Shown: positions 29,281 to 63,204, counted from the first letter of the stretch. The stretch is DNA of 64,000 nt from Puniceicoccaceae bacterium (GCA_050301035.1 JBNKYT010000013.1:81796-145795), one strand, 5' to 3'. Numbers and translations are program-made. The notes: generated from the sequence alone by a model not told the origin.

Positions 29281-30102
29281 ATGGCTAAGACGCTGGACAT
29301 TGATGTTTTCGACCGCACAAATCGACTGAGTGCTGCCTTGGAGAAGTCAGAGCAAACCAATAAACGCAGCAGCCGCTATCATTTTGCGGTAAAACGCTAC
29401 AAGCAGTTTCGAACACACAAACAGATCAGGGGTGGGTTTTGCATCCTGCATATCGGCAGCAAGGCCGCTGGACTGGAACAGTTGCGCGAAGTGCGTAAAC
29501 AACTCGACAGTAAACGATGGCGAGGCGTGGTGGCCGTGCTAAATAGTAAACTGGCCAGCGATACTCAGTTTCAACGCATATTGCTACAGCCAGGCCGAAC
29601 TGACGCGATCCGCTTCATCATCGACGATAAGGCGGATGAAAACCCGAAGCCTGTCGTCGATCATTTGAACGATCTGATTGATACGGTTGGCACCGAAGAT
29701 ACCCGTGAAGGCAGTAAAGCCATCCATCTGCCCTACCTCGAGGCGGGCCAACCGATCCGCAACCCCAAAAGCCACCGGCTCGATGCCAAGCGTATCGCAG
29801 ATTACTTCGACCTTAGCTTGCGGGAGCTGGCTCGTATCTTAGGAAAAAGTCACCCCACGGTCGATAAAACGCCCGACAGCAAGAATCTACAGGCGACGCT
29901 ACAACCCTTCGAAGCCATTCTGCGGGGACGAATTTTAGTCGGACATGACGATACACTTTTCCGCCAATGGTTGAACACCGCATCCAAGGAATTTCCTGAG
30001 CGGGACGGAAAAGTACCAAGCCCTATGGATATTATACGGATGGGGCATCCCGAAGTCGTGGCGGCACTCGTTGACGAAGCCTTAACCGGTCAACCCGCCT
30101 GA
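29281..30102 (+). CDS. Xre/DUF2384 (ParS/MbcA-like) antitoxin with an unknown ~165-aa N-terminal extension
   Basis: The C-terminal third has an HTH (LSLRELARILGKSHPTV) plus a DUF2384-like segment (FRQWLNTASKEF...SPMDIIRMGHPEVVAALVDEAL). It lies immediately upstream of a RES-domain gene (9-nt gap). Confidence 0.7.
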   Translation: MAKTLDIDVFDRTNRLSAALEKSEQTNKRSSRYHFAVKRYKQFRTHKQIRGGFCILHIGSKAAGLEQLREVRKQLDSKRWRGVVAVLNSKLASDTQFQRILLQPGRTDAIRFIIDDKADENPKPVVDHLNDLIDTVGTEDTREGSKAIHLPYLEAGQPIRNPKSHRLDAKRIADYFDLSLRELARILGKSHPTVDKTPDSKNLQATLQPFEAILRGRILVGHDDTLFRQWLNTASKEFPERDGKVPSPMDIIRMGHPEVVAALVDEALTGQPA

Positions 30103-30111
30103 CGACTGAAG

Positions 30112-30714
30112 ATGCTATCCGCTGTAGAACTCAATACTGCGATTAGCCAGATACAGGGCACTCCCTACGCAGGTGTGCTCACCCGCTTTGTGGATAGCGA
30201 TGCATTCGAAGCAGGGGATAAAAATTGTTTCTACGACTTAGGTCCCCATGTCAGTGGCAAGCGCTATACGCCCAAAGGCGGCGCACGCGGCATCTACATG
30301 GCCGAAGGTATTAAAGCCGCTCTGGGTGAAGCGACCCAAAATGGGCTCGCGGCATTAAATCCAAACAGGGTAGCCACACGTAACCAGATGGATATCAAAG
30401 TTAAGCTGGAGAGCGTGCTGGATTTGGGTGACGCGAGGATTCGTCGACGCCTGCAGACTTCAATTAATGAACTCAAATTACCATGGAAGGGTGGATTACT
30501 TCCGCCCTACTCCTGGCCGGTAACATGGCTGTTGGGGCAGGCAGTTTTTGAGAGTGAGCGCTTTGACGGGATACGCTACCCTTCAAAGGAAGTAAACCGA
30601 CATTACTGCGTGCTGATTTTAACGGAACGACTGGGTAAAAGCGCAAAACTTGCTGCACACCGCCCCGGCGAAGGACCTGTCTCTTTAACTGGTAATTTCA
30701 AGCTAAGACCATGA
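30112..30714 (+). CDS. RES-domain toxin
   Basis: Ordered R-E-S signature: SGKRYTPKGG, IYMAEGIKAALGE, GIRYPSKEVNRHYCVLI. 200 aa. Confidence 0.8.
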   Translation: MLSAVELNTAISQIQGTPYAGVLTRFVDSDAFEAGDKNCFYDLGPHVSGKRYTPKGGARGIYMAEGIKAALGEATQNGLAALNPNRVATRNQMDIKVKLESVLDLGDARIRRRLQTSINELKLPWKGGLLPPYSWPVTWLLGQAVFESERFDGIRYPSKEVNRHYCVLILTERLGKSAKLAAHRPGEGPVSLTGNFKLRP

Positions 30715-43465: not shown

Positions 43466-44368
43466 ATGAAAGCCAAGCGCATTTTCCCCCTCTCCCTCTT
43501 AACCGCCGCGCTTTTACTAGCCGGTTGCAGTGTAAAGATCGCCAATATGACGCCCGCCACCGTACCGGCGAACCCCTCGGGCATCTACACGCTGAGCGCC
43601 AAGACCAATATCAAAAACGAAATGATCGACCGCTCCAGCCTGACCGCATCCGTGGTCATCGACGGGCAGCGCCACCCGATGACTCTCAGCGATATGGGCA
43701 ATGGCTTCTACGATTTCGACTACGCCATCCCTGAAGGCCGCCGGAACGCACGCTTCTACTACGTCGTGAACTACCGATTGAAAACCATCGGCGACACTCC
43801 GGGTGAATTGAAAGAAATCAAATCCCCGATCCAAGAGTTTCGCCTGATCGACCGCTACTCGATCACTCTGGACGCCGAGCGCGCCCCGATCGGCACACAA
43901 CTCGCCGTACTCGGCCGCGGCTTCGGCCCGGGAGACGTAGTCTATGTCGGAGACCGAGCAACCGATACCCGCTTCGTCTCGACCAATGCGCTGCAGTTCA
44001 TCGTCCCACCTCTCGCCCCAGGTAACGCCTACGCCGTCGACGTGCGCAACGGCTCGGACATTCAATCCGCCGGAGTGCTCCGTATCGATCCGGGCATCCC
44101 GCTCTCCGTCGCCCCCAACAGTCTGGAACTTTCGACCGGCCAGCGCCAAGCACTGGCCTTCGCGCTCGATTATCCCGCCCCTGCCGGAGGACTCTATCTC
44201 TCCGTCACGACCGACATCCCCGACAGCATCATCATGCCCGAAGTCTTCATCCCCGAAGGTGCCCGCACCGTGAATGTAACCGTCGAAGGCGGCGACGCGG
44301 GCAAAGGCACACTTTACGTCAAGGCCAACGGTCTGCCCGAACTCAAGATCCCCGTCACAATTCGATAG
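43466..44368 (+). CDS. Lipoprotein with IPT/TIG-like domain
   Basis: Lipobox (LLLAGCS) at ATG 43466. GTQLAVLGRGFGPGDVVYVGDRATDTRFVSTNALQFIVPPLAPGNAYAVDVRN looks like an IPT/TIG fold. Confidence 0.65.
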   Translation: MKAKRIFPLSLLTAALLLAGCSVKIANMTPATVPANPSGIYTLSAKTNIKNEMIDRSSLTASVVIDGQRHPMTLSDMGNGFYDFDYAIPEGRRNARFYYVVNYRLKTIGDTPGELKEIKSPIQEFRLIDRYSITLDAERAPIGTQLAVLGRGFGPGDVVYVGDRATDTRFVSTNALQFIVPPLAPGNAYAVDVRNGSDIQSAGVLRIDPGIPLSVAPNSLELSTGQRQALAFALDYPAPAGGLYLSVTTDIPDSIIMPEVFIPEGARTVNVTVEGGDAGKGTLYVKANGLPELKIPVTIR

Positions 44369-44424
44369 ATCGAGGCGTTTTCAGTTCGAAAACGGTCCGT
44401 CGAGAAATCGAGCCAAACAGGAGC

Positions 44425-44558
44425 GCCGAGGCAACTGGGGACTGATTGCCCTCCCCGGACGACTCGCATCGAACGGGAGGGAGGTTGTCCTCAACCTCCG
44501 CTGCGGGGGCGTTACCTGTCGGAAGCGTCGGGGCAACTGGCGACAGAAGCCCTCCCGG
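44425..44558 (+). repeat. 1.3-copy member of the 100-bp structured repeat family
   Basis: Core GGGAGGGAGGTTGTCCTCAACCTCCGCTGCGGG at 44475-44507 has one mismatch to the array core at 61388. It is preceded by a partial 3' unit (44425-44456) in the same orientation as the array. Confidence 0.75.
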
Positions 44559-44655: not shown

Positions 44656-44684
44656 AAAAAAAACGACTCCGATTGGAGTCGTTT
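44656..44684 (-). terminator. Intrinsic terminator after the entericidin-like gene
   Basis: AAACGACTCC-GATT-GGAGTCGTTT stem-loop with an A-run on the plus strand, which is a T-run after the stem on the minus strand. Confidence 0.7.
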
Positions 44685-44709: not shown

Positions 44710-44847
44710 CTACTCCCCGGAACCTTGGATGTTTTTGCCCAGCGATTCAATATCCTCTCCTAATCCCTTGAAGGTGTTGCACCCGGCAAGGGCGAGAAGC
44801 GATACGGCGAGAAGAGATACAAGTAGTCGTTGCATGGATTTTTTCAT
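44710..44847 (-). CDS. Entericidin A/B-like small lipoprotein (45 aa, not in ORF track)
   Basis: My manual translation is MKKSMQRLLVSLLAVSLLALAGCNTFKGLGEDIESLGKNIQGSGE. The lipobox LAGC followed by NT.KG.GEDI..LG..I matches the EcnA/EcnB pattern. The gene has its own terminator. Confidence 0.75.
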   Translation of the reverse strand: MKKSMQRLLVSLLAVSLLALAGCNTFKGLGEDIESLGKNIQGSGE

Positions 44848-51608: not shown

Positions 51609-51776
51609 ATGAACGTCCTCCTATTAACCGTCTTTCTGAGCATGCTCCTCGCATCGCTCTTTTTGCTCTTTTTCCTCCGCGAGCGGCGAAGCCAAAGCCG
51701 CCGCCTCGGCAGCCCCGAACAAGACTCGCTCCGCCCTTTTGACATCGAAACGCCAAAAATCGCTTTACGCAGATGA
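51609..51776 (+). CDS. ccoS: cbb3 oxidase maturation protein CcoS/FixS-like (55 aa, not in ORF track)
   Basis: My manual translation is MNVLLLTVFLSMLLASLFLLFFLRERRSQSRRLGSPEQDSLRPFDIETPKIALRR. It has one TM helix followed by a charged tail, like CcoS. Its TGA overlaps the ccoNO ATG (ATGA at 51773-51776). Confidence 0.65.
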   Translation: MNVLLLTVFLSMLLASLFLLFFLRERRSQSRRLGSPEQDSLRPFDIETPKIALRR

Positions 51777-54142
51777 ATACCAACACCACGACCACCACCA
51801 TCGAATACGATGACGATACCGTAAGGAAGTTCATGATCGCTTCCATTTTCTGGGGCCTCATTGGCCTCGGAGCCGGAGTACTCATCGCCACACAACTGAA
51901 CTACTGGCAAATGAACGGTAAGTTCCTCGAATGGATCACATTCGGATGGCTGAAGAGCGAAGGCGTCGAGTTTCTGACCTTCGGTCGTTTACGCCCGCTC
52001 CATACCAATGCCGCGATTTTCGCCTTCGTCGGAAATATGATGTTCGCCGGAGTGTACTACTCCACCCAGCGTCTCTGCCGCGCACGCATCGCATCGCCCT
52101 TGCTGACAAAGATCCACTTTTGGGGCTGGCAATTCATCATCGTGTTGGCCGCCATCACGCTTCCCGCCGGCTTCACCCGCGGGAAAGAATACGCCGAGCT
52201 CATCTGGCCTATCAATATCCTCGTCGCAGTCATCTGGCTCGTCTTCGCGGCCAACTTCTTCTGGACACTCGCCAAGCGCCACGAGAAGTCCCTCTACGTC
52301 GGCATCTGGTTCTACATCGCGACGATCGTCACGATTACGATGCTCTACGTCGTCAATCACCTCTCGCTTCCGACCAGCTTCACCCATAGCTACCCGATTT
52401 TCGGTGGCGTGCAGGACGCTCTGGTCCAGTGGTGGTACGGGCACAACGCCGTCGCGTTCTTCCTCACCACACCGATGCTCGGCATCATGTACTACTTCGT
52501 GCCGAAAGCGGCCAACCGCCCGGTCTACTCCTACCGCCTCTCGATCATCCACTTCTGGTCACTCGTCTTCATCTACATCTGGGCCGGTCCCCACCACCTG
52601 TTGAACACCGCCCTCCCCGAATGGCTCCAGTCGCTCGGCATGATCTTCAGCCTGATGCTCTGGGCACCGTCCTGGGCCGGTATGCTCAACGGCCTGCTCA
52701 CGCTCCGCGGCGCATGGGACAAACTCCTGAACGATCCCGTTATCAAATTCTTTGCCGCTGCGGTCACCTTCTACGGAATGTCCACCTTCGAAGGACCGCT
52801 CCTCTCGATCAAAGCTGTTAACGCCCTGTCCCACTATACCGACTGGACCATCGGCCACGTCCATAGCGGCACCCTCGGCTGGAACGGCTTCCTCGCCGCC
52901 GGTATGTTCTACTGGCTCGCCCCACGTCTCTGGAACACCAAGCTGCACTCCGTCGCAATGGCCAACGCGCACTTCTGGCTCGGGATGGTCGGCATCCTCC
53001 TGTATGTCGCCTCCATGTGGGTCTCGGGCATCACGCAGGGCCTCATGCTCAGTGCCACCACCGACGGCGGCACCGTCCTGCAATACCCGAACTTCCTCGA
53101 CACCTTACTGGCAATCCGCCCGGTCATGCTCTTCCGCGCCATCGGCGGCGGGCTCTACCTCTTCGGCTTCGCCATGATGGCCTTCAATATCTGGAAGACC
53201 GCACGCAGCGGCGAACCCGTCAACGGCACCATCGAAATCACTTCCTCGGTCGACGAGCTCGCAGGCAAGAAGCGCAACGGCTTCCACGCCTTCCTCTCAG
53301 CTCCGGTGATTTACGCATTGCTGATCGTCTTCTCACTCTGCCTCACCATCTTCAGCAACGGAGCCCTCTTCATCTTCGGAATGCTCCTGACCATCGTCTT
53401 CATCATCGTCGCCATCGCTCACTTCGAGGTATCGAAAGCGACGTGGACCCAGTGGTATGACGAACTCCTCAGCCACGGATTCGGCTTCAGCGTACTGACA
53501 ATTATCGCCGCAGCCATCGGCGGCGCCATCCAGATCATCCCCACGGTCACGGTTCAACGCGCCGACAACATCGAAGGCCGGTTACAAGTGCCCTACACCC
53601 CACTCGAACTAGCCGGCCGCGACATCTACGTCAGCGAAGGTTGCTACAACTGTCACTCGCAGATGATCCGTACGCTCGCCCCCGAAGTCATGCGCTACGG
53701 CGACTACTCCCACCTCGGTGAGTCGGTCTACGACCACCCTTACCAATGGGGCTCCAAACGTACCGGCCCCGACCTCGCCCGCGAAGGCGGCAAGCGCTCC
53801 GACGACTGGCACTACTTCCACTTGCTCGACCCGCGCAGCGTCTCGCCCGGCTCGAACATGCCGAACTACACCTGGCTCTTCAAAAAATCGACCAAGGTCG
53901 ACGAACTGCCCAGTAAGATCAACGCCATGCGCATGCTCGGCGTCCCATACCCCATCGATCTCTCGGAAGAAGAGATTCAGGCCCAGATCGATGAGCAGGC
54001 AGCCGGCATCGTCGAACGCCTCGCAGAGAAAGGCGCCTTCACCGAGCCCGACAAGGAGATCGTCGCCGTGATCGCCTACCTGCAAAAACTGGGCACCTAC
54101 GAGATTCACAACAAAAAGGACAACCGCGTCGCCTCCCGCTAA
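51773..54142 (+). CDS. ccoNO: cbb3-type cytochrome c oxidase, fused subunits I and II (CcoN-CcoO)
   Basis: Haem-copper oxidase core (HTNAAIFAFVGNM, WYGHNAVAFF, GPHHL, IGHVHSG), followed by extra TM helices and a CcoO module with haem c motif SEGCYNCHSQMIR. Confidence 0.92.
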   Translation: MNTNTTTTTIEYDDDTVRKFMIASIFWGLIGLGAGVLIATQLNYWQMNGKFLEWITFGWLKSEGVEFLTFGRLRPLHTNAAIFAFVGNMMFAGVYYSTQRLCRARIASPLLTKIHFWGWQFIIVLAAITLPAGFTRGKEYAELIWPINILVAVIWLVFAANFFWTLAKRHEKSLYVGIWFYIATIVTITMLYVVNHLSLPTSFTHSYPIFGGVQDALVQWWYGHNAVAFFLTTPMLGIMYYFVPKAANRPVYSYRLSIIHFWSLVFIYIWAGPHHLLNTALPEWLQSLGMIFSLMLWAPSWAGMLNGLLTLRGAWDKLLNDPVIKFFAAAVTFYGMSTFEGPLLSIKAVNALSHYTDWTIGHVHSGTLGWNGFLAAGMFYWLAPRLWNTKLHSVAMANAHFWLGMVGILLYVASMWVSGITQGLMLSATTDGGTVLQYPNFLDTLLAIRPVMLFRAIGGGLYLFGFAMMAFNIWKTARSGEPVNGTIEITSSVDELAGKKRNGFHAFLSAPVIYALLIVFSLCLTIFSNGALFIFGMLLTIVFIIVAIAHFEVSKATWTQWYDELLSHGFGFSVLTIIAAAIGGAIQIIPTVTVQRADNIEGRLQVPYTPLELAGRDIYVSEGCYNCHSQMIRTLAPEVMRYGDYSHLGESVYDHPYQWGSKRTGPDLAREGGKRSDDWHYFHLLDPRSVSPGSNMPNYTWLFKKSTKVDELPSKINAMRMLGVPYPIDLSEEEIQAQIDEQAAGIVERLAEKGAFTEPDKEIVAVIAYLQKLGTYEIHNKKDNRVASR

Positions 54143-60603: not shown

Positions 60604-61287
60604 TCAATCCATCCGCGGCGCCGTGGAAATCTTCTCCTTGGTGAAGGCGATGGTGTTTTCCGCCAGATAGCCGCGGAAAGGCAAGGTCGGCATGACCAAG
60701 GCCCGACGACCGAGAATCGATCCCGGATTCAAGACCGAATTGCAGCCGACTTCGGCCGCATCGCCGATCAAGGCGCCAAGCTTGCGCAGCCCCGACTTCG
60801 CCCGACTGCCGTCCGGCAGCTGCACCGGCACTTCCAACTGGTCCAGACGTAGATTCGAGCAAATCACCCCCGCACCGAGGTGCGCACGGTTACCAAGAAT
60901 GCTGTCTCCGACATAGCTGAAATGCGGCACCTGTACCCGATCCAACAGCAGACAATTCTTAAACTCGCAGGAGTTGCCCAGCACACACCCGGCCCCCGCG
61001 ATCACATTACTGCGGATAAAGACACCCGGGCGCAGTTCGCAACCTTCGCCGATGTATGCCGGGCCTTGGATCGAACCGAAAGGCGGCAACTGGACCGAAG
61101 GGTGAATGTAAACATCTCCTTCGATGCGGAAACCCGGGGGAACCTCACCGGAATAGCCACCCAAGTCCGCACCGGCCAAAGCCTTACGAATCAAAGGCAC
61201 CCAGTCCCATGGAGCCAGATCCCCCGCGAACGTATCGGCAAAGGGCAAGGACTTCGGAAAATCAAATAAATCACAGGCGTTGAGCAT
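60604..61287 (-). CDS. Hexapeptide-repeat (left-handed beta-helix) transferase, GlmU C-terminal-like
   Basis: Repetitive [LIV]-G-x4 pattern (IGEGCELRPGVFIRSNVIAGAGCVLGNSCEFKNCLL...VGDSILGNRAHLGAGVICSN). Confidence 0.7.
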   Translation of the reverse strand: MLNACDLFDFPKSLPFADTFAGDLAPWDWVPLIRKALAGADLGGYSGEVPPGFRIEGDVYIHPSVQLPPFGSIQGPAYIGEGCELRPGVFIRSNVIAGAGCVLGNSCEFKNCLLLDRVQVPHFSYVGDSILGNRAHLGAGVICSNLRLDQLEVPVQLPDGSRAKSGLRKLGALIGDAAEVGCNSVLNPGSILGRRALVMPTLPFRGYLAENTIAFTKEKISTAPRMD

Positions 61288-61370
61288 GCCCCGATCTGAA
61301 CAATTAGCCTGCCCCCCTGCGAACTAAAAAAGCACCGTCGAAGGCAGTCGAACCAGCCGGGATATTCGAG

Positions 61371-61783
61371 GCGAGCTCGCGTCGTCCGGGAGGGAGGTTG
61401 TCCTCAACCTCCGTTGCGGGATCGTTGCCTGCCGAATCCGCCGGGGCAACTGAGGACAGATTGACCTCCCCGCGACATGCGTCGTACGGGAGGGAGGTTG
61501 TCCCCAACCTCCGTTGCGGGGTCGTTACTTGCCGAATCCGCCGGGGCAACTGAGGACAGATGCCCCCCCAGGCGACTCGCGTCATACGGGAGGGAGGTTG
61601 TCCTCAACCTCCGTTGCGGGGTCGTTGCCTGCCGTAACTGCCGGAGCAACTGAGGACAGATGCCCTCCCAGGCGACTCGCGTCGTACGGGAGGGAGGTTG
61701 TCCCCAACCTCCGTTGTGGTTTCGTTGCCTGCCGGACCGCCGGGGCAACTGGAGACAGGTTGACCTCCCGCTGCTGACTCGTC
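61371..61783 (+). repeat. Tandem array of four 100-bp structured repeats (plus a partial fifth start)
   Basis: The 33-nt core GGGAGGGAGGTTGTCCYCAACCTCCGTTGCGGG starts at 61388, 61488, 61588 and 61688. Units are contiguous, and each has two hairpins. Confidence 0.9.
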
Positions 61784-61908
61784 CCTGTCTTTCGTGTTTT
61801 TCGTCGTTAACAGTTAAAAGACTCCATTCAACGAAGTCGCAGCAATTCAGGTTGGATTTAAGCGGGAATCCTCCCTAGCTTCTCCCGTTTCCCAACTTCC
61901 AAGAACCC

Positions 61909-63204
61909 GTGCACGACGTAAAAGATAAACCCAAAATGGTCGAACAGGCCATGCTCATCGGCATCACCTTGCCGCAGGACTCCGAGTCGACAACCCGCAG
62001 CCTGCTGGATGAGTTGCGTGAACTCGTCACCACCCTCGGCATCGGGATCGGACACGAGCGCATGGTCTCGATCCGTAAACCGCAGGCCAAGTTCCTGGTC
62101 GGTTCGGGCAAGGCCGAGGAACTGATCGAAGAAGCACGCGAGCACGGTTGCGATGTCATCGTATTCGATAACGAGCTGACTCCGGCCCAACAAAGGAACT
62201 GGGAGAAAGCGACCGACGACAAGATCCTCGTGATCGACCGGCAGGAAGTGATTCTCGATATTTTCGGCAACCGCGCCCAAACCAAAGAAGCGGTCCTGCA
62301 GGTCGAGCTCGCACGCTTGGAGTACAACCTGCCCCGCCTGAAGCGGGCATGGACCCACCTCGACCGACAGCGCGGCGGCGGCTCGATGCAGCGCGATGCC
62401 GGTGAAACACAATTGGAGCTCGACCAGCGCATGGTGCGCGCCCAGATCGCCCGCGTGAAGCGCGAGCTGGTGAACGTAATCCAGCACCGTCAGGTCCAGC
62501 GCAAGAAGCGCATGACCGTCCCCGTTCCGACCTGCGCGATCGTGGGCTATACCAATGCCGGCAAGTCTTCGCTGCTGAACAAGCTGACCAACTCCGACAT
62601 CCTGGCCGAAGACAAACTTTTCGCCACGCTCGACCCGACCTCGCGCCGCTGCCCGCTCCCCAGCGGCCAGCCGCTCGTCATCACCGACACCGTCGGCTTC
62701 GTCCGCAATCTCCCCCACCGTCTGGTCGACGCATTCAAGGCCACGCTCGAAGAAGCCATCGTATCGAACTTCCTGATTCACGTCCTCGACGTCAACAGCC
62801 CCGAAGTGGAAGCCCACGCCGAAACCACACTCCATGTCCTCAACGAGCTCGGAGCGAAAGACAAAACCATCCTCACCGTCTTCAACAAGGTGGATGACCT
62901 CTGGGATGAAAGCATCCGCACGAATCTGGCCCTGCAACACCCCGACGCCCTGTTCATCAGCGCCCACACCGGCGAAGGCATCCCGGCCCTGTTGAACCGG
63001 ATCGAGAGCATCATCGAGAGCGATTTCGAGCAACTCCGGCTGCTCATTCCCCACGAGCGCTACGATCTCGTCGCCCGCCTGCACCGCGAAGGCGGCGTAC
63101 GCAAAGAAGAAGCCCGCGACGAAGGCACTTACATCGTCGGCTCCGTCCCCGAACGCCTGCTCCCCGCCCTACGGCCCTTCGTCCTCAAAACCGACGAAGC
63201 TTAG
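61909..63204 (+). CDS. hflX: GTPase HflX
   Basis: HflX N-terminal domain, then G1 (GYTNAGKSSLLN), DTVGF and NKVD. GTG 61909 per the ORF track; ATG 61936 is an alternative start. Confidence 0.95.
   Translation: MHDVKDKPKMVEQAMLIGITLPQDSESTTRSLLDELRELVTTLGIGIGHERMVSIRKPQAKFLVGSGKAEELIEEAREHGCDVIVFDNELTPAQQRNWEKATDDKILVIDRQEVILDIFGNRAQTKEAVLQVELARLEYNLPRLKRAWTHLDRQRGGGSMQRDAGETQLELDQRMVRAQIARVKRELVNVIQHRQVQRKKRMTVPVPTCAIVGYTNAGKSSLLNKLTNSDILAEDKLFATLDPTSRRCPLPSGQPLVITDTVGFVRNLPHRLVDAFKATLEEAIVSNFLIHVLDVNSPEVEAHAETTLHVLNELGAKDKTILTVFNKVDDLWDESIRTNLALQHPDALFISAHTGEGIPALLNRIESIIESDFEQLRLLIPHERYDLVARLHREGGVRKEEARDEGTYIVGSVPERLLPALRPFVLKTDEA

Follow-up and report, generated by a model that had tools for sequence, protein, structure and literature searches.

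REP sequences of the two super-families described carry a conserved tetranucleotide tag, either GTAG or CGTC, which terminates the hairpin at its foot, and untagged REP-like repeats exist as well (PMC3733652). REPINs correspond to two inverted REPs with a spacer in between (PMC3337134), and non-GTAG, so-called “atypical” REP structures go together with Y1 enzymes of the Bacteroidetes (subclass 2.6) and of the PVC group (class 3) (PMC6006769). The array of tandem 100-bp units found here between an LbH transferase gene and hflX, in a window of 64,000 nt (i.e., the whole stretch of DNA analysed) from a Puniceicoccaceae bacterium, is probably a cluster of a non-coding, dispersed and palindromic REP/BIME (REPIN)-like repeat, which is untagged and has been tandemly amplified. 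Regarding the hallmarks of such elements, (i) a short palindrome able to form a stem-loop is present as a 25-nt module with a 9-bp stem and a 4-nt loop, (ii) an inverted pair of modules, as in BIMEs and REPINs, occurs in every unit, (iii) these pairs stand in tandem with alternating linkers, as in the BIME-2 type, and (iv) the terminal GTAG/CGTC tetranucleotide is absent from the foot of the hairpin, where the tag is GGGA or GGGGA. The motif CGTC is present in the linker of the window and absent from a solo copy located elsewhere in the window, from a metagenome contig (L014) and from Muribaculaceae. Because of this GGGA tag and the lack of GTAG/CGTC, the repeat is placed among the “untagged” REP-like families, where it may stand near the atypical structures just mentioned (PMC6006769). 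The sequence-only reading, which a match to a described REP, BIME or MITE would have refuted, had recognised no described element family; such a match does exist in architecture, namely inverted hairpin modules that are dispersed, intergenic and in tandem, but not in sequence, be it in Rfam or in the searchable literature.

The four 100-bp tandem repeats announced upstream of hflX are real: TRF delineates 4.0 copies with a period of 100 at 61369-61769 (86% matches, score 593), and the 33-nt core is found at 61388, 61488 and 61588 with 0 mismatches and at 61688 with 2 mismatches, for 0 matches expected in dinucleotide shuffles. Several structural claims made at the same time also hold, i.e., the perfect 8-bp stem with a 4-nt loop, GGAGGTTG-TCCY-CAACCTCC, is intact in all four units, the sole variable position in the core of units 1-3 falls in the loop of this hairpin, the GTTGCC-N15-GGCAAC hairpin is present and degraded in unit 2 (GTTACT), and the terminal complementarity between GGGAGGG and CCCTCCC is genuine. 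So does the genomic setting, with two divergent genes flanking the array, the LbH transferase gene (ATG at 61287, - strand) on one side and hflX on the other, and the view of the array as non-coding, hairpin-rich and acting at the DNA or RNA level is supported. A repeat protein is rejected, the period not being divisible by 3 and homologous proteins not being found; a chimeric protein query built from the ORFs of the array in all frames, seeking further loci via spurious gene calls, gave 0 matches. CRISPR is rejected for an array without unique spacers, and integron attC and retron were both dismissed.

Each unit is composed of two inverted copies of a hairpin module of ~25 nt, a central hairpin between them and an 18-nt linker thereafter (Table 1). 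The left module, GGGA-GGGAGGTTG-TCCY-CAACCTCC[C], comprises an unpaired 5′ tag (GGGA), a 9-bp stem and a 4-nt loop. The right module is a diverged inverse of the left one, ending with TGAGGACA...CCCTCCC, and within the family of the window it makes the poorer hairpin of the two. The pattern GGGAGGG-N4-TGTCCYCA, which had previously been missed, opens each unit on the + strand and recurs on the - strand where the unit ends, the + and - strand modules being 63 nt apart in every unit. As the modules form an inverted pair, the loop octamer TGTCCTCA and the downstream TGAGGACA, just like GGGAGGG and CCCTCCC, are the two arms of an inverted repeat. An inner segment of ~31 nt and the 18-nt linker alternate across the 4 units with an exact 100-nt period, and the unpaired 5′ extension, GGGA or GGGGA, is conserved in all lineages. 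A single unit can adopt one long hairpin or, alternatively, three local ones, and units fold more stably than shuffled sequences (z between -2.1 and -4.3); the two strands of the array fold about equally well (z = -3.5 and -4.8). A consensus fold of 5 units revealed no covariation (term +0.12).

Table 1. Positions in the window of the features making up the inserted block, its conserved surroundings and the solo locus.
Feature	Position	Strand	Remark
Conserved LbH-proximal upstream block, context only	61288-61331	-	82% identical to L019
Whole lineage-specific inserted block	61332-61843		L019 (HflX 92%) and L034 (89%) align to ~61331 and again from ~61844, 16-19 nt between
Left edge: degenerate right-module remnant CCGTCGAAGGCAGTCGAACCAG and linker GGCGAGCTCGCGTCGTCC	61332-61387	+	Weak register with 3′ part of the unit and linker in alignment; absent in relatives
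Unit 1, left hairpin module GGGAGGGAGGTTGTCCTCAACCTCC	61388-61412	+	
Unit 1, central hairpin GTTGCC-N15-GGCAAC	61424-61450	+	Units 2-4 at +100, +200, +300; degraded in unit 2
Unit 1, right module, inverted, variant GGGAGG-TCAATC-TGTCCTCA-GTTGCC	61444-61469	-	
Linker 1 CCGCGACATGCGTCGTAC	61470-61487	+	Equivalent linkers at 61570-61587 and 61670-61687
Unit 2, left module, loop TCCC	61488-61512	+	
Unit 2, right module, rc GGGGGGG-CATC-TGTCCTCA-GTTGCC	61544-61569	-	Pattern match, 1 mismatch
Unit 3, left module, loop TCCT	61588-61612	+	
Unit 3, right module, rc GGGAGGG-CATC-TGTCCTCA-GTTGCT	61644-61669	-	Pattern match, 0 mismatches
Unit 4, left module, loop TCCC	61688-61712	+	
Unit 4, right module, variant GGGAGG-TCAACC-TGTCTCCA-GTTGCC	61743-61769	-	
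Right tail of inserted block: linker-like GCTGCTGACTCGTCC, then ~56 nt absent from relatives	61770-61843		
Conserved hflX-proximal upstream block (92 nt), context only	61844-61935	+	84% identical to L019, ~80% to L034
Solo locus, extra partial right module, rc GGGAGGG-CAATC-AGTCCCCA-GTTGCC	44423-44454	-	nhmmer match to unit positions 69-100
Solo locus, linker GGACGACTCGCATCGAAC	44455-44474	+	
Solo locus, full unit	44475-44556	+	Left module 44475-44499, central hairpin, right module ~44531-44556

A fifth copy, overlooked by the sequence-only reading, is located 17 kb away from the array (core at 44475-44507 with 1 mismatch, full element at 44423-44556) and is 73-83% identical to the array units. 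Its neighbours are convergent, i.e., a TIG-domain gene ending at 44368 (+) and an entericidin-like ORF at 44710-44847 (-); in relatives, synteny breaks after TIM and the solo locus is without syntenic counterpart. Within the ~74 kb of the genome covered, 11 modules are seen at 2 loci, all intergenic. The entericidin-like ORF itself encodes 45 aa with a lipoprotein-like signal (…LAGCNT…), is absent from the gene calls of the contig, has a sub-threshold Pfam match to Entericidin EcnA/B (E = 6e-4, 20.1 bits, the cut-off being 23.3) and has a strong intrinsic terminator downstream (44661-44684, - strand). Back at the array, a terminator-like hairpin (GACTTCGTTGAATGGAGTC then TTTTAACTGT) lies at 61820-61838 on the - strand, inside the 74-nt right tail, and faces the array and the LbH gene.

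The names of the HflX homologues point to Opitutae/Puniceicoccaceae, near Lentimonas. In the closest relative (HflX 92%), represented by four independent contigs (L019-L022), the LbH and hflX genes are likewise divergent with a spacer of 154 nt, and in the next one (HflX 89%; L034 and L035) with a spacer of ~138 nt, in both cases without array, and the third (HflX 88%; L023) exhibits a different upstream gene and a spacer of 127 nt. Pairwise alignment indicates that 61234-61331 and 61844-62000 of the window are conserved in the relatives, the distance between the two blocks being 16-19 nt there vs 512 nt in the window, and pattern or profile search of ~73 kb of the relatives' DNA retrieved no module. 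Because of these empty sites, the array together with the degenerate partial unit on its left and the 74-nt tail on its right is, as judged from the alignments, a lineage-specific insertion (61332-61843) amid a short divergent promoter region. The repeat has dispersed to at least 2 loci, and it entered the LbH/hflX spacer in this lineage only. As for the conserved 92 nt located downstream of the array, they probably hold the promoter and 5′UTR of hflX.

A role of the array as an hflX leader, envisaged from the sequence alone, is consequently unsupported, since the two closest relatives are devoid of it and a copy sits at an unrelated locus with convergent genes; the “sense orientation” put forward in its favour has little meaning for a unit that is a quasi-palindrome. 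With it goes a tempting but unsupported candidate for the riboregulation of hflX. It had rightly been noted that genes of the window mostly lack a SD, the SD core (GGAG/GAGG/AGGA at -18..-4) being present in 4 of the 63 called genes of the window, i.e., 6%, below the background of 11%; upstream regions in the window are G-poor. Translation initiation in this verrucomicrobium appears to be SD-independent, like that of Bacteroidota. The GGAGG strings of the units, taken earlier for SD-like, are instead the hairpin-stem sequence of a module present in Muribaculaceae as well, and not ribosome-binding sites, in an organism whose translation does without SD. The start of hflX is ambiguous, namely GTG 61909, ATG 61936 or ATG 61951, giving 431, 422 or 417 aa, respectively; the gene call (417-aa product) and the relatives favour 61936 or 61951, starts are called differently by different pipelines in the relatives, DNA conservation with the latter reaches upstream through GTG 61909, and exact look-up of the 431-aa and 422-aa forms of HflX returned no record.

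Beyond the close relatives, a scan of species-representative genomes for the 20-nt hairpin retrieved two Muribaculaceae MAGs and one probable chance match, and the exact 20-nt hairpin is in no verrucomicrobial species-representative genome; a 26-mer was matched in only one JGI metagenome contig (L014). Given so few matches in these scans, the module family is rare, unlike the classical high-copy REPs. The match in Dehalococcoidales (L008) was set aside as probable chance, consisting of the 20-nt hairpin only, without GGGA tag or inverted partner, when ~2 chance matches are expected for the collection scanned. In the Muribaculaceae MAG JAIDPA01, the extended module GGGGAGGGAGGTTGTCCCCAACCTCCCC occurs with an inverted partner (stem AAGTTG/CAACTT), and the pairs constitute inverted doublets of 112-126 bp with a central hairpin, which sit between housekeeping genes, e.g., UppP, FtsX, RfbBCD or DAHP synthase. 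One Muribaculaceae doublet closes into a long hairpin that is nearly perfect (-72 kcal/mol, z = -7.4), and solitary modules as well as same-strand head-to-tail runs are also encountered in Muribaculaceae (L003, L009). Altogether, JAIDPA01 harbours at least 20 modules in 9 loci, these loci having been chosen by the pattern itself. Its doublets (L003-L011) are very often flanked by 8-mer microsatellites, i.e., AGGCTCAA / GCCTAAAG / GGCTTTAG runs, for instance at ~2557-2600 in L010, ~480-520 in L011 and ~2100-2125 in L005.

In the other Muribaculaceae MAG, MGBC122141, the 20-nt hairpin lies within a different unit of ~80 bp, twice in tandem at each of two sites (L002, 4495-4593 and 6369-6468), with CCCTGTCTTAGGAGG before the hairpin and an A-run after it; as the unit differs, it represents a second repeat family built on the same hairpin. 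The metagenome contig L014 (JGI12210J13797_10037904, GC 53%) contains one element (242-351) with the same left module, a right-module stem CGAC/GTCG and an unrelated interior of 61 nt. This element is found immediately upstream of a gene pair for an AbrB/SpoVT-like antitoxin and a PIN toxin, with a Phd/PIN pair nearby.

Across the 27 distinct variants of the module, pairing in the 9-bp stem amounts to 90%, vs 35-63% in slid controls, 5 of the 9 stem pairs are doubly compensated (AGGT/ACCT, AAGT/ACTT, CGAC/GTCG) and the observed covariation score is reached by 0 of 500 shuffles. From such pairing and compensation, the conserved feature is the tagged hairpin rather than a duplex terminal repeat, and this hairpin is kept by compensatory changes across variants and lineages. 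That the identical 25-nt tagged hairpin serves as a repeat module in two phyla, both SD-less, suggests the horizontal spread of a cognate enzyme.

Regarding sequence families, a tRNA was the sole match of the window to Rfam in gathering mode, the best sub-threshold match for 61200-62000 in E-value mode was 20 bits vs a gathering score of 55, and no family was retrieved for the related elements. A 27-nt match, due to chance, was all that a plasmid collection yielded, and the viral contig scan for the repeat gave 0; literature queried by sequence strings returned unrelated primer matches only and the supplements of a HUH survey no match. The kind itself, REP/BIME-like, is a known one; this sequence family was not found in Rfam, in the plasmid and viral collections or in the searchable literature. 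RAYTs being single-copy, their absence from 74.5 kb is a weak negative; over this length of contig, Pfam calls revealed neither a RAYT/Y1 (PF01797-type) gene nor a transposase, the Muribaculaceae loci examined contain no Y1 gene, and tblastn with RayT, IS608 TnpA and IS200 TnpA (approximate sequences) against all the DNA examined gave noise only. No target-site duplication of at least 4 nt is visible at 8 element boundaries, though a 2-nt one may exist.

Some further genes of the window can be mentioned for themselves. A gene for a 273-aa product without Pfam match is followed by a RES-domain toxin gene (PF08808) at 29281-30102 and 30112-30714 (+), respectively, and the two resemble a toxin-antitoxin module of the RES type. 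At ~51773-54142 (+), a single product of 789 aa bears both COX1 (CcoN) and FixO (CcoO) domains and is therefore a fused cbb3 oxidase subunit; its gene adjoins those for FixP, a FixG-like protein and a P-type ATPase.

As a REP/BIME-like repeat, the array can be accounted for by a scheme in which an enzyme acting in trans would recognise the module as single-stranded DNA. The likeliest candidate is a HUH Y1 protein of the RAYT/TnpA(REP) type, whose gene would lie in another part of the genome. New loci would be founded by this enzyme with no duplication of the target, after which arrays would lengthen or shorten as units slip or recombine unequally with one another. As for the hflX site, it would offer a permissive gap between two divergent promoters, and any effect on LbH or hflX, such as promoter spacing or cruciform/supercoil absorption, would be secondary and not the reason for the sequence; the hairpins possibly provided to mRNA ends at the solo locus would be secondary too.

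The number of units calls for some care. The window is 100% identical over 21 kb to JBNKZN010000008.1 (GCA_050301555.1), a second assembly of the same genome, in which only units 1 and 4 are present at this site (2 vs 4 units), and short-read Logan contigs break off inside the first or last module of the array. That the array, or its length, stems from mis-assembly is nonetheless hardly credible, as at least 2 units exist in an independent assembly, three sources agree exactly on the assembly of the solo copy, and the private substitutions of units 2 and 3 (GTTACT, GTAACTG, GGAGC, CCCCCCC) could not be copied from unit 1 or 4; given these variants, the form with 4 units did not arise from the assembler duplicating units 1 and 4. 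The missing 200 nt are bounded by a 38-nt stretch, identical at the junctions between units 1 and 2 and between units 3 and 4, and the 2-unit version may be either a collapsed assembly or a real deletion variant. A pure artefact is thus excluded as regards the existence of the array, not as regards its exact length. In practice, the array is a spot where short-read assemblies collapse or break, and it could serve as a VNTR for strain typing.

Owing to their terminal inverted repeats of ~19 nt, their size of 80-125 bp, their dispersed intergenic copies in several lineages and their lineage-specific insertion, the units could alternatively be viewed as a MITE, i.e., a non-autonomous derivative of a DDE-transposase IS with GGGAGGG...TGTCCYCA as TIRs and later duplicated in tandem. 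This is unlikely, considering that no TSD of 4 nt or more is seen at the 8 elements and no parent IS in any DNA examined (contig and Muribaculaceae loci), that the two ends differ in stem with each hairpin compensated, which points to recognition of a folded single strand and not of duplex TIRs, and that the solitary modules and head-to-tail runs in Muribaculaceae (L003, L009) are typical of REPs as opposed to MITEs. A function at the level of DNA would have the eight hairpin modules co-opted as a cruciform or as a protein-binding site, for gyrase or a nucleoid protein, so as to dampen the supercoiling caused by transcription or to insulate the promoters of LbH and hflX. In E. coli, BIME-2 is an established binding site of gyrase, the palindromic potential of the array is strong on both strands, and the latter sits exactly between divergent genes, with a spacer grown from ~150 to ~650 nt; however, the relatives manage without the array, the number of units varies between assemblies and the solo copy occurs in another context, between convergent genes. 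Such a role may be compatible with the REP/BIME reading, but as the explanation of the array it is decidedly improbable. Still further down the scale, and very improbable, comes a structured RNA, where the units would either serve hflX as a cis-regulatory 5′ leader or be small-RNA genes in tandem, acting through a closing helix GGGAGGG/CCCUCCC, loop-loop pairing UGUCCUCA/UGAGGACA, or GGAGG/CCUCC strings. While the array is upstream of hflX on the same strand, its 8-nt loop exactly complementary to the downstream 8-mer and its units more stably folded than shuffles, both strands fold equally, as a DNA palindrome would, and the consensus fold of 5 units is without covariation; in addition, no Rfam match nor any promoter- or terminator-like signal per unit is found, the two closest relatives lack the array with the 92-nt hflX-proximal block conserved downstream, a copy exists at an unrelated locus and the organism does not use SD.

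Returning to the preferred reading of a REP/BIME-like cluster, it can be extended into a broader and tentative proposal, rather doubtful as a whole, in which the GGGA hairpin GGGAGGTTG-TCCY-CAACCTCC would define a third, undescribed REP-like super-family beside GTAG and CGTC. It would be shared by Muribaculaceae (Bacteroidota) and Lentimonas-like Opitutae (Verrucomicrobiota) through horizontal transfer of a ssDNA enzyme, the hflX array would have been co-opted as a supercoil-sensitive spacer, and the module might be tolerated only in non-SD bacteria because it fills transcripts with GGAGG and CCUCC strings. At this stage, a REP/BIME-like family is documented in a marine verrucomicrobium, with a 25-nt module identical to one abundant in mouse-gut Muribaculaceae. 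Should the cognate enzyme be found, the range of REP/RAYT-type systems and of their tags would be widened, with an example of spread across phyla.

When set against known systems, the repeat is closest in organisation to the BIME-2 of E. coli and the REPINs of Pseudomonas, which are mobilised by RAYT/TnpA(REP), with which it shares (i) imperfect palindromes of 20-40 nt with an unpaired 5′ tag, (ii) two module subtypes with different stems, like Y and Z in E. coli, (iii) clusters of tandem dimers with alternating long and short linkers, and (iv) an extragenic location, including between convergent genes, with no target duplication and a lineage-specific, patchy distribution. It differs from them by the GGGA/GGGGA tag, a low apparent copy number (2 loci in ~74 kb), no RAYT in the 74.5 kb examined, a module common to two phyla and a unit of exactly 100 bp. 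With the Correia elements of Neisseria and other MITEs (ERIC, RUP, Nezha), it has in common non-coding units of 80-150 bp with terminal inverted repeats, an intergenic position, folding into a long hairpin and patchiness among strains; those elements, though, exhibit IS-related duplex TIRs and target duplications (TA for Correia) and are normally not arranged head-to-tail, whereas here no TSD is seen and each end keeps its own hairpin. Like the mycobacterial MIRU-VNTR, it consists of tandem units of 50-100 bp at several dispersed intergenic loci with a copy number varying between isolates, but MIRUs are non-palindromic and lie inside operons, with small overlapping ORFs and a fixed orientation respective to transcription. 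Finally, the ends of IS200/IS605 and PATE-type derivatives also carry subterminal hairpins, read as ssDNA by a HUH Y1 enzyme with no target duplication; their LE and RE hairpins are on the same strand and in the same orientation, whereas the modules described here are inverted, as in REPINs.
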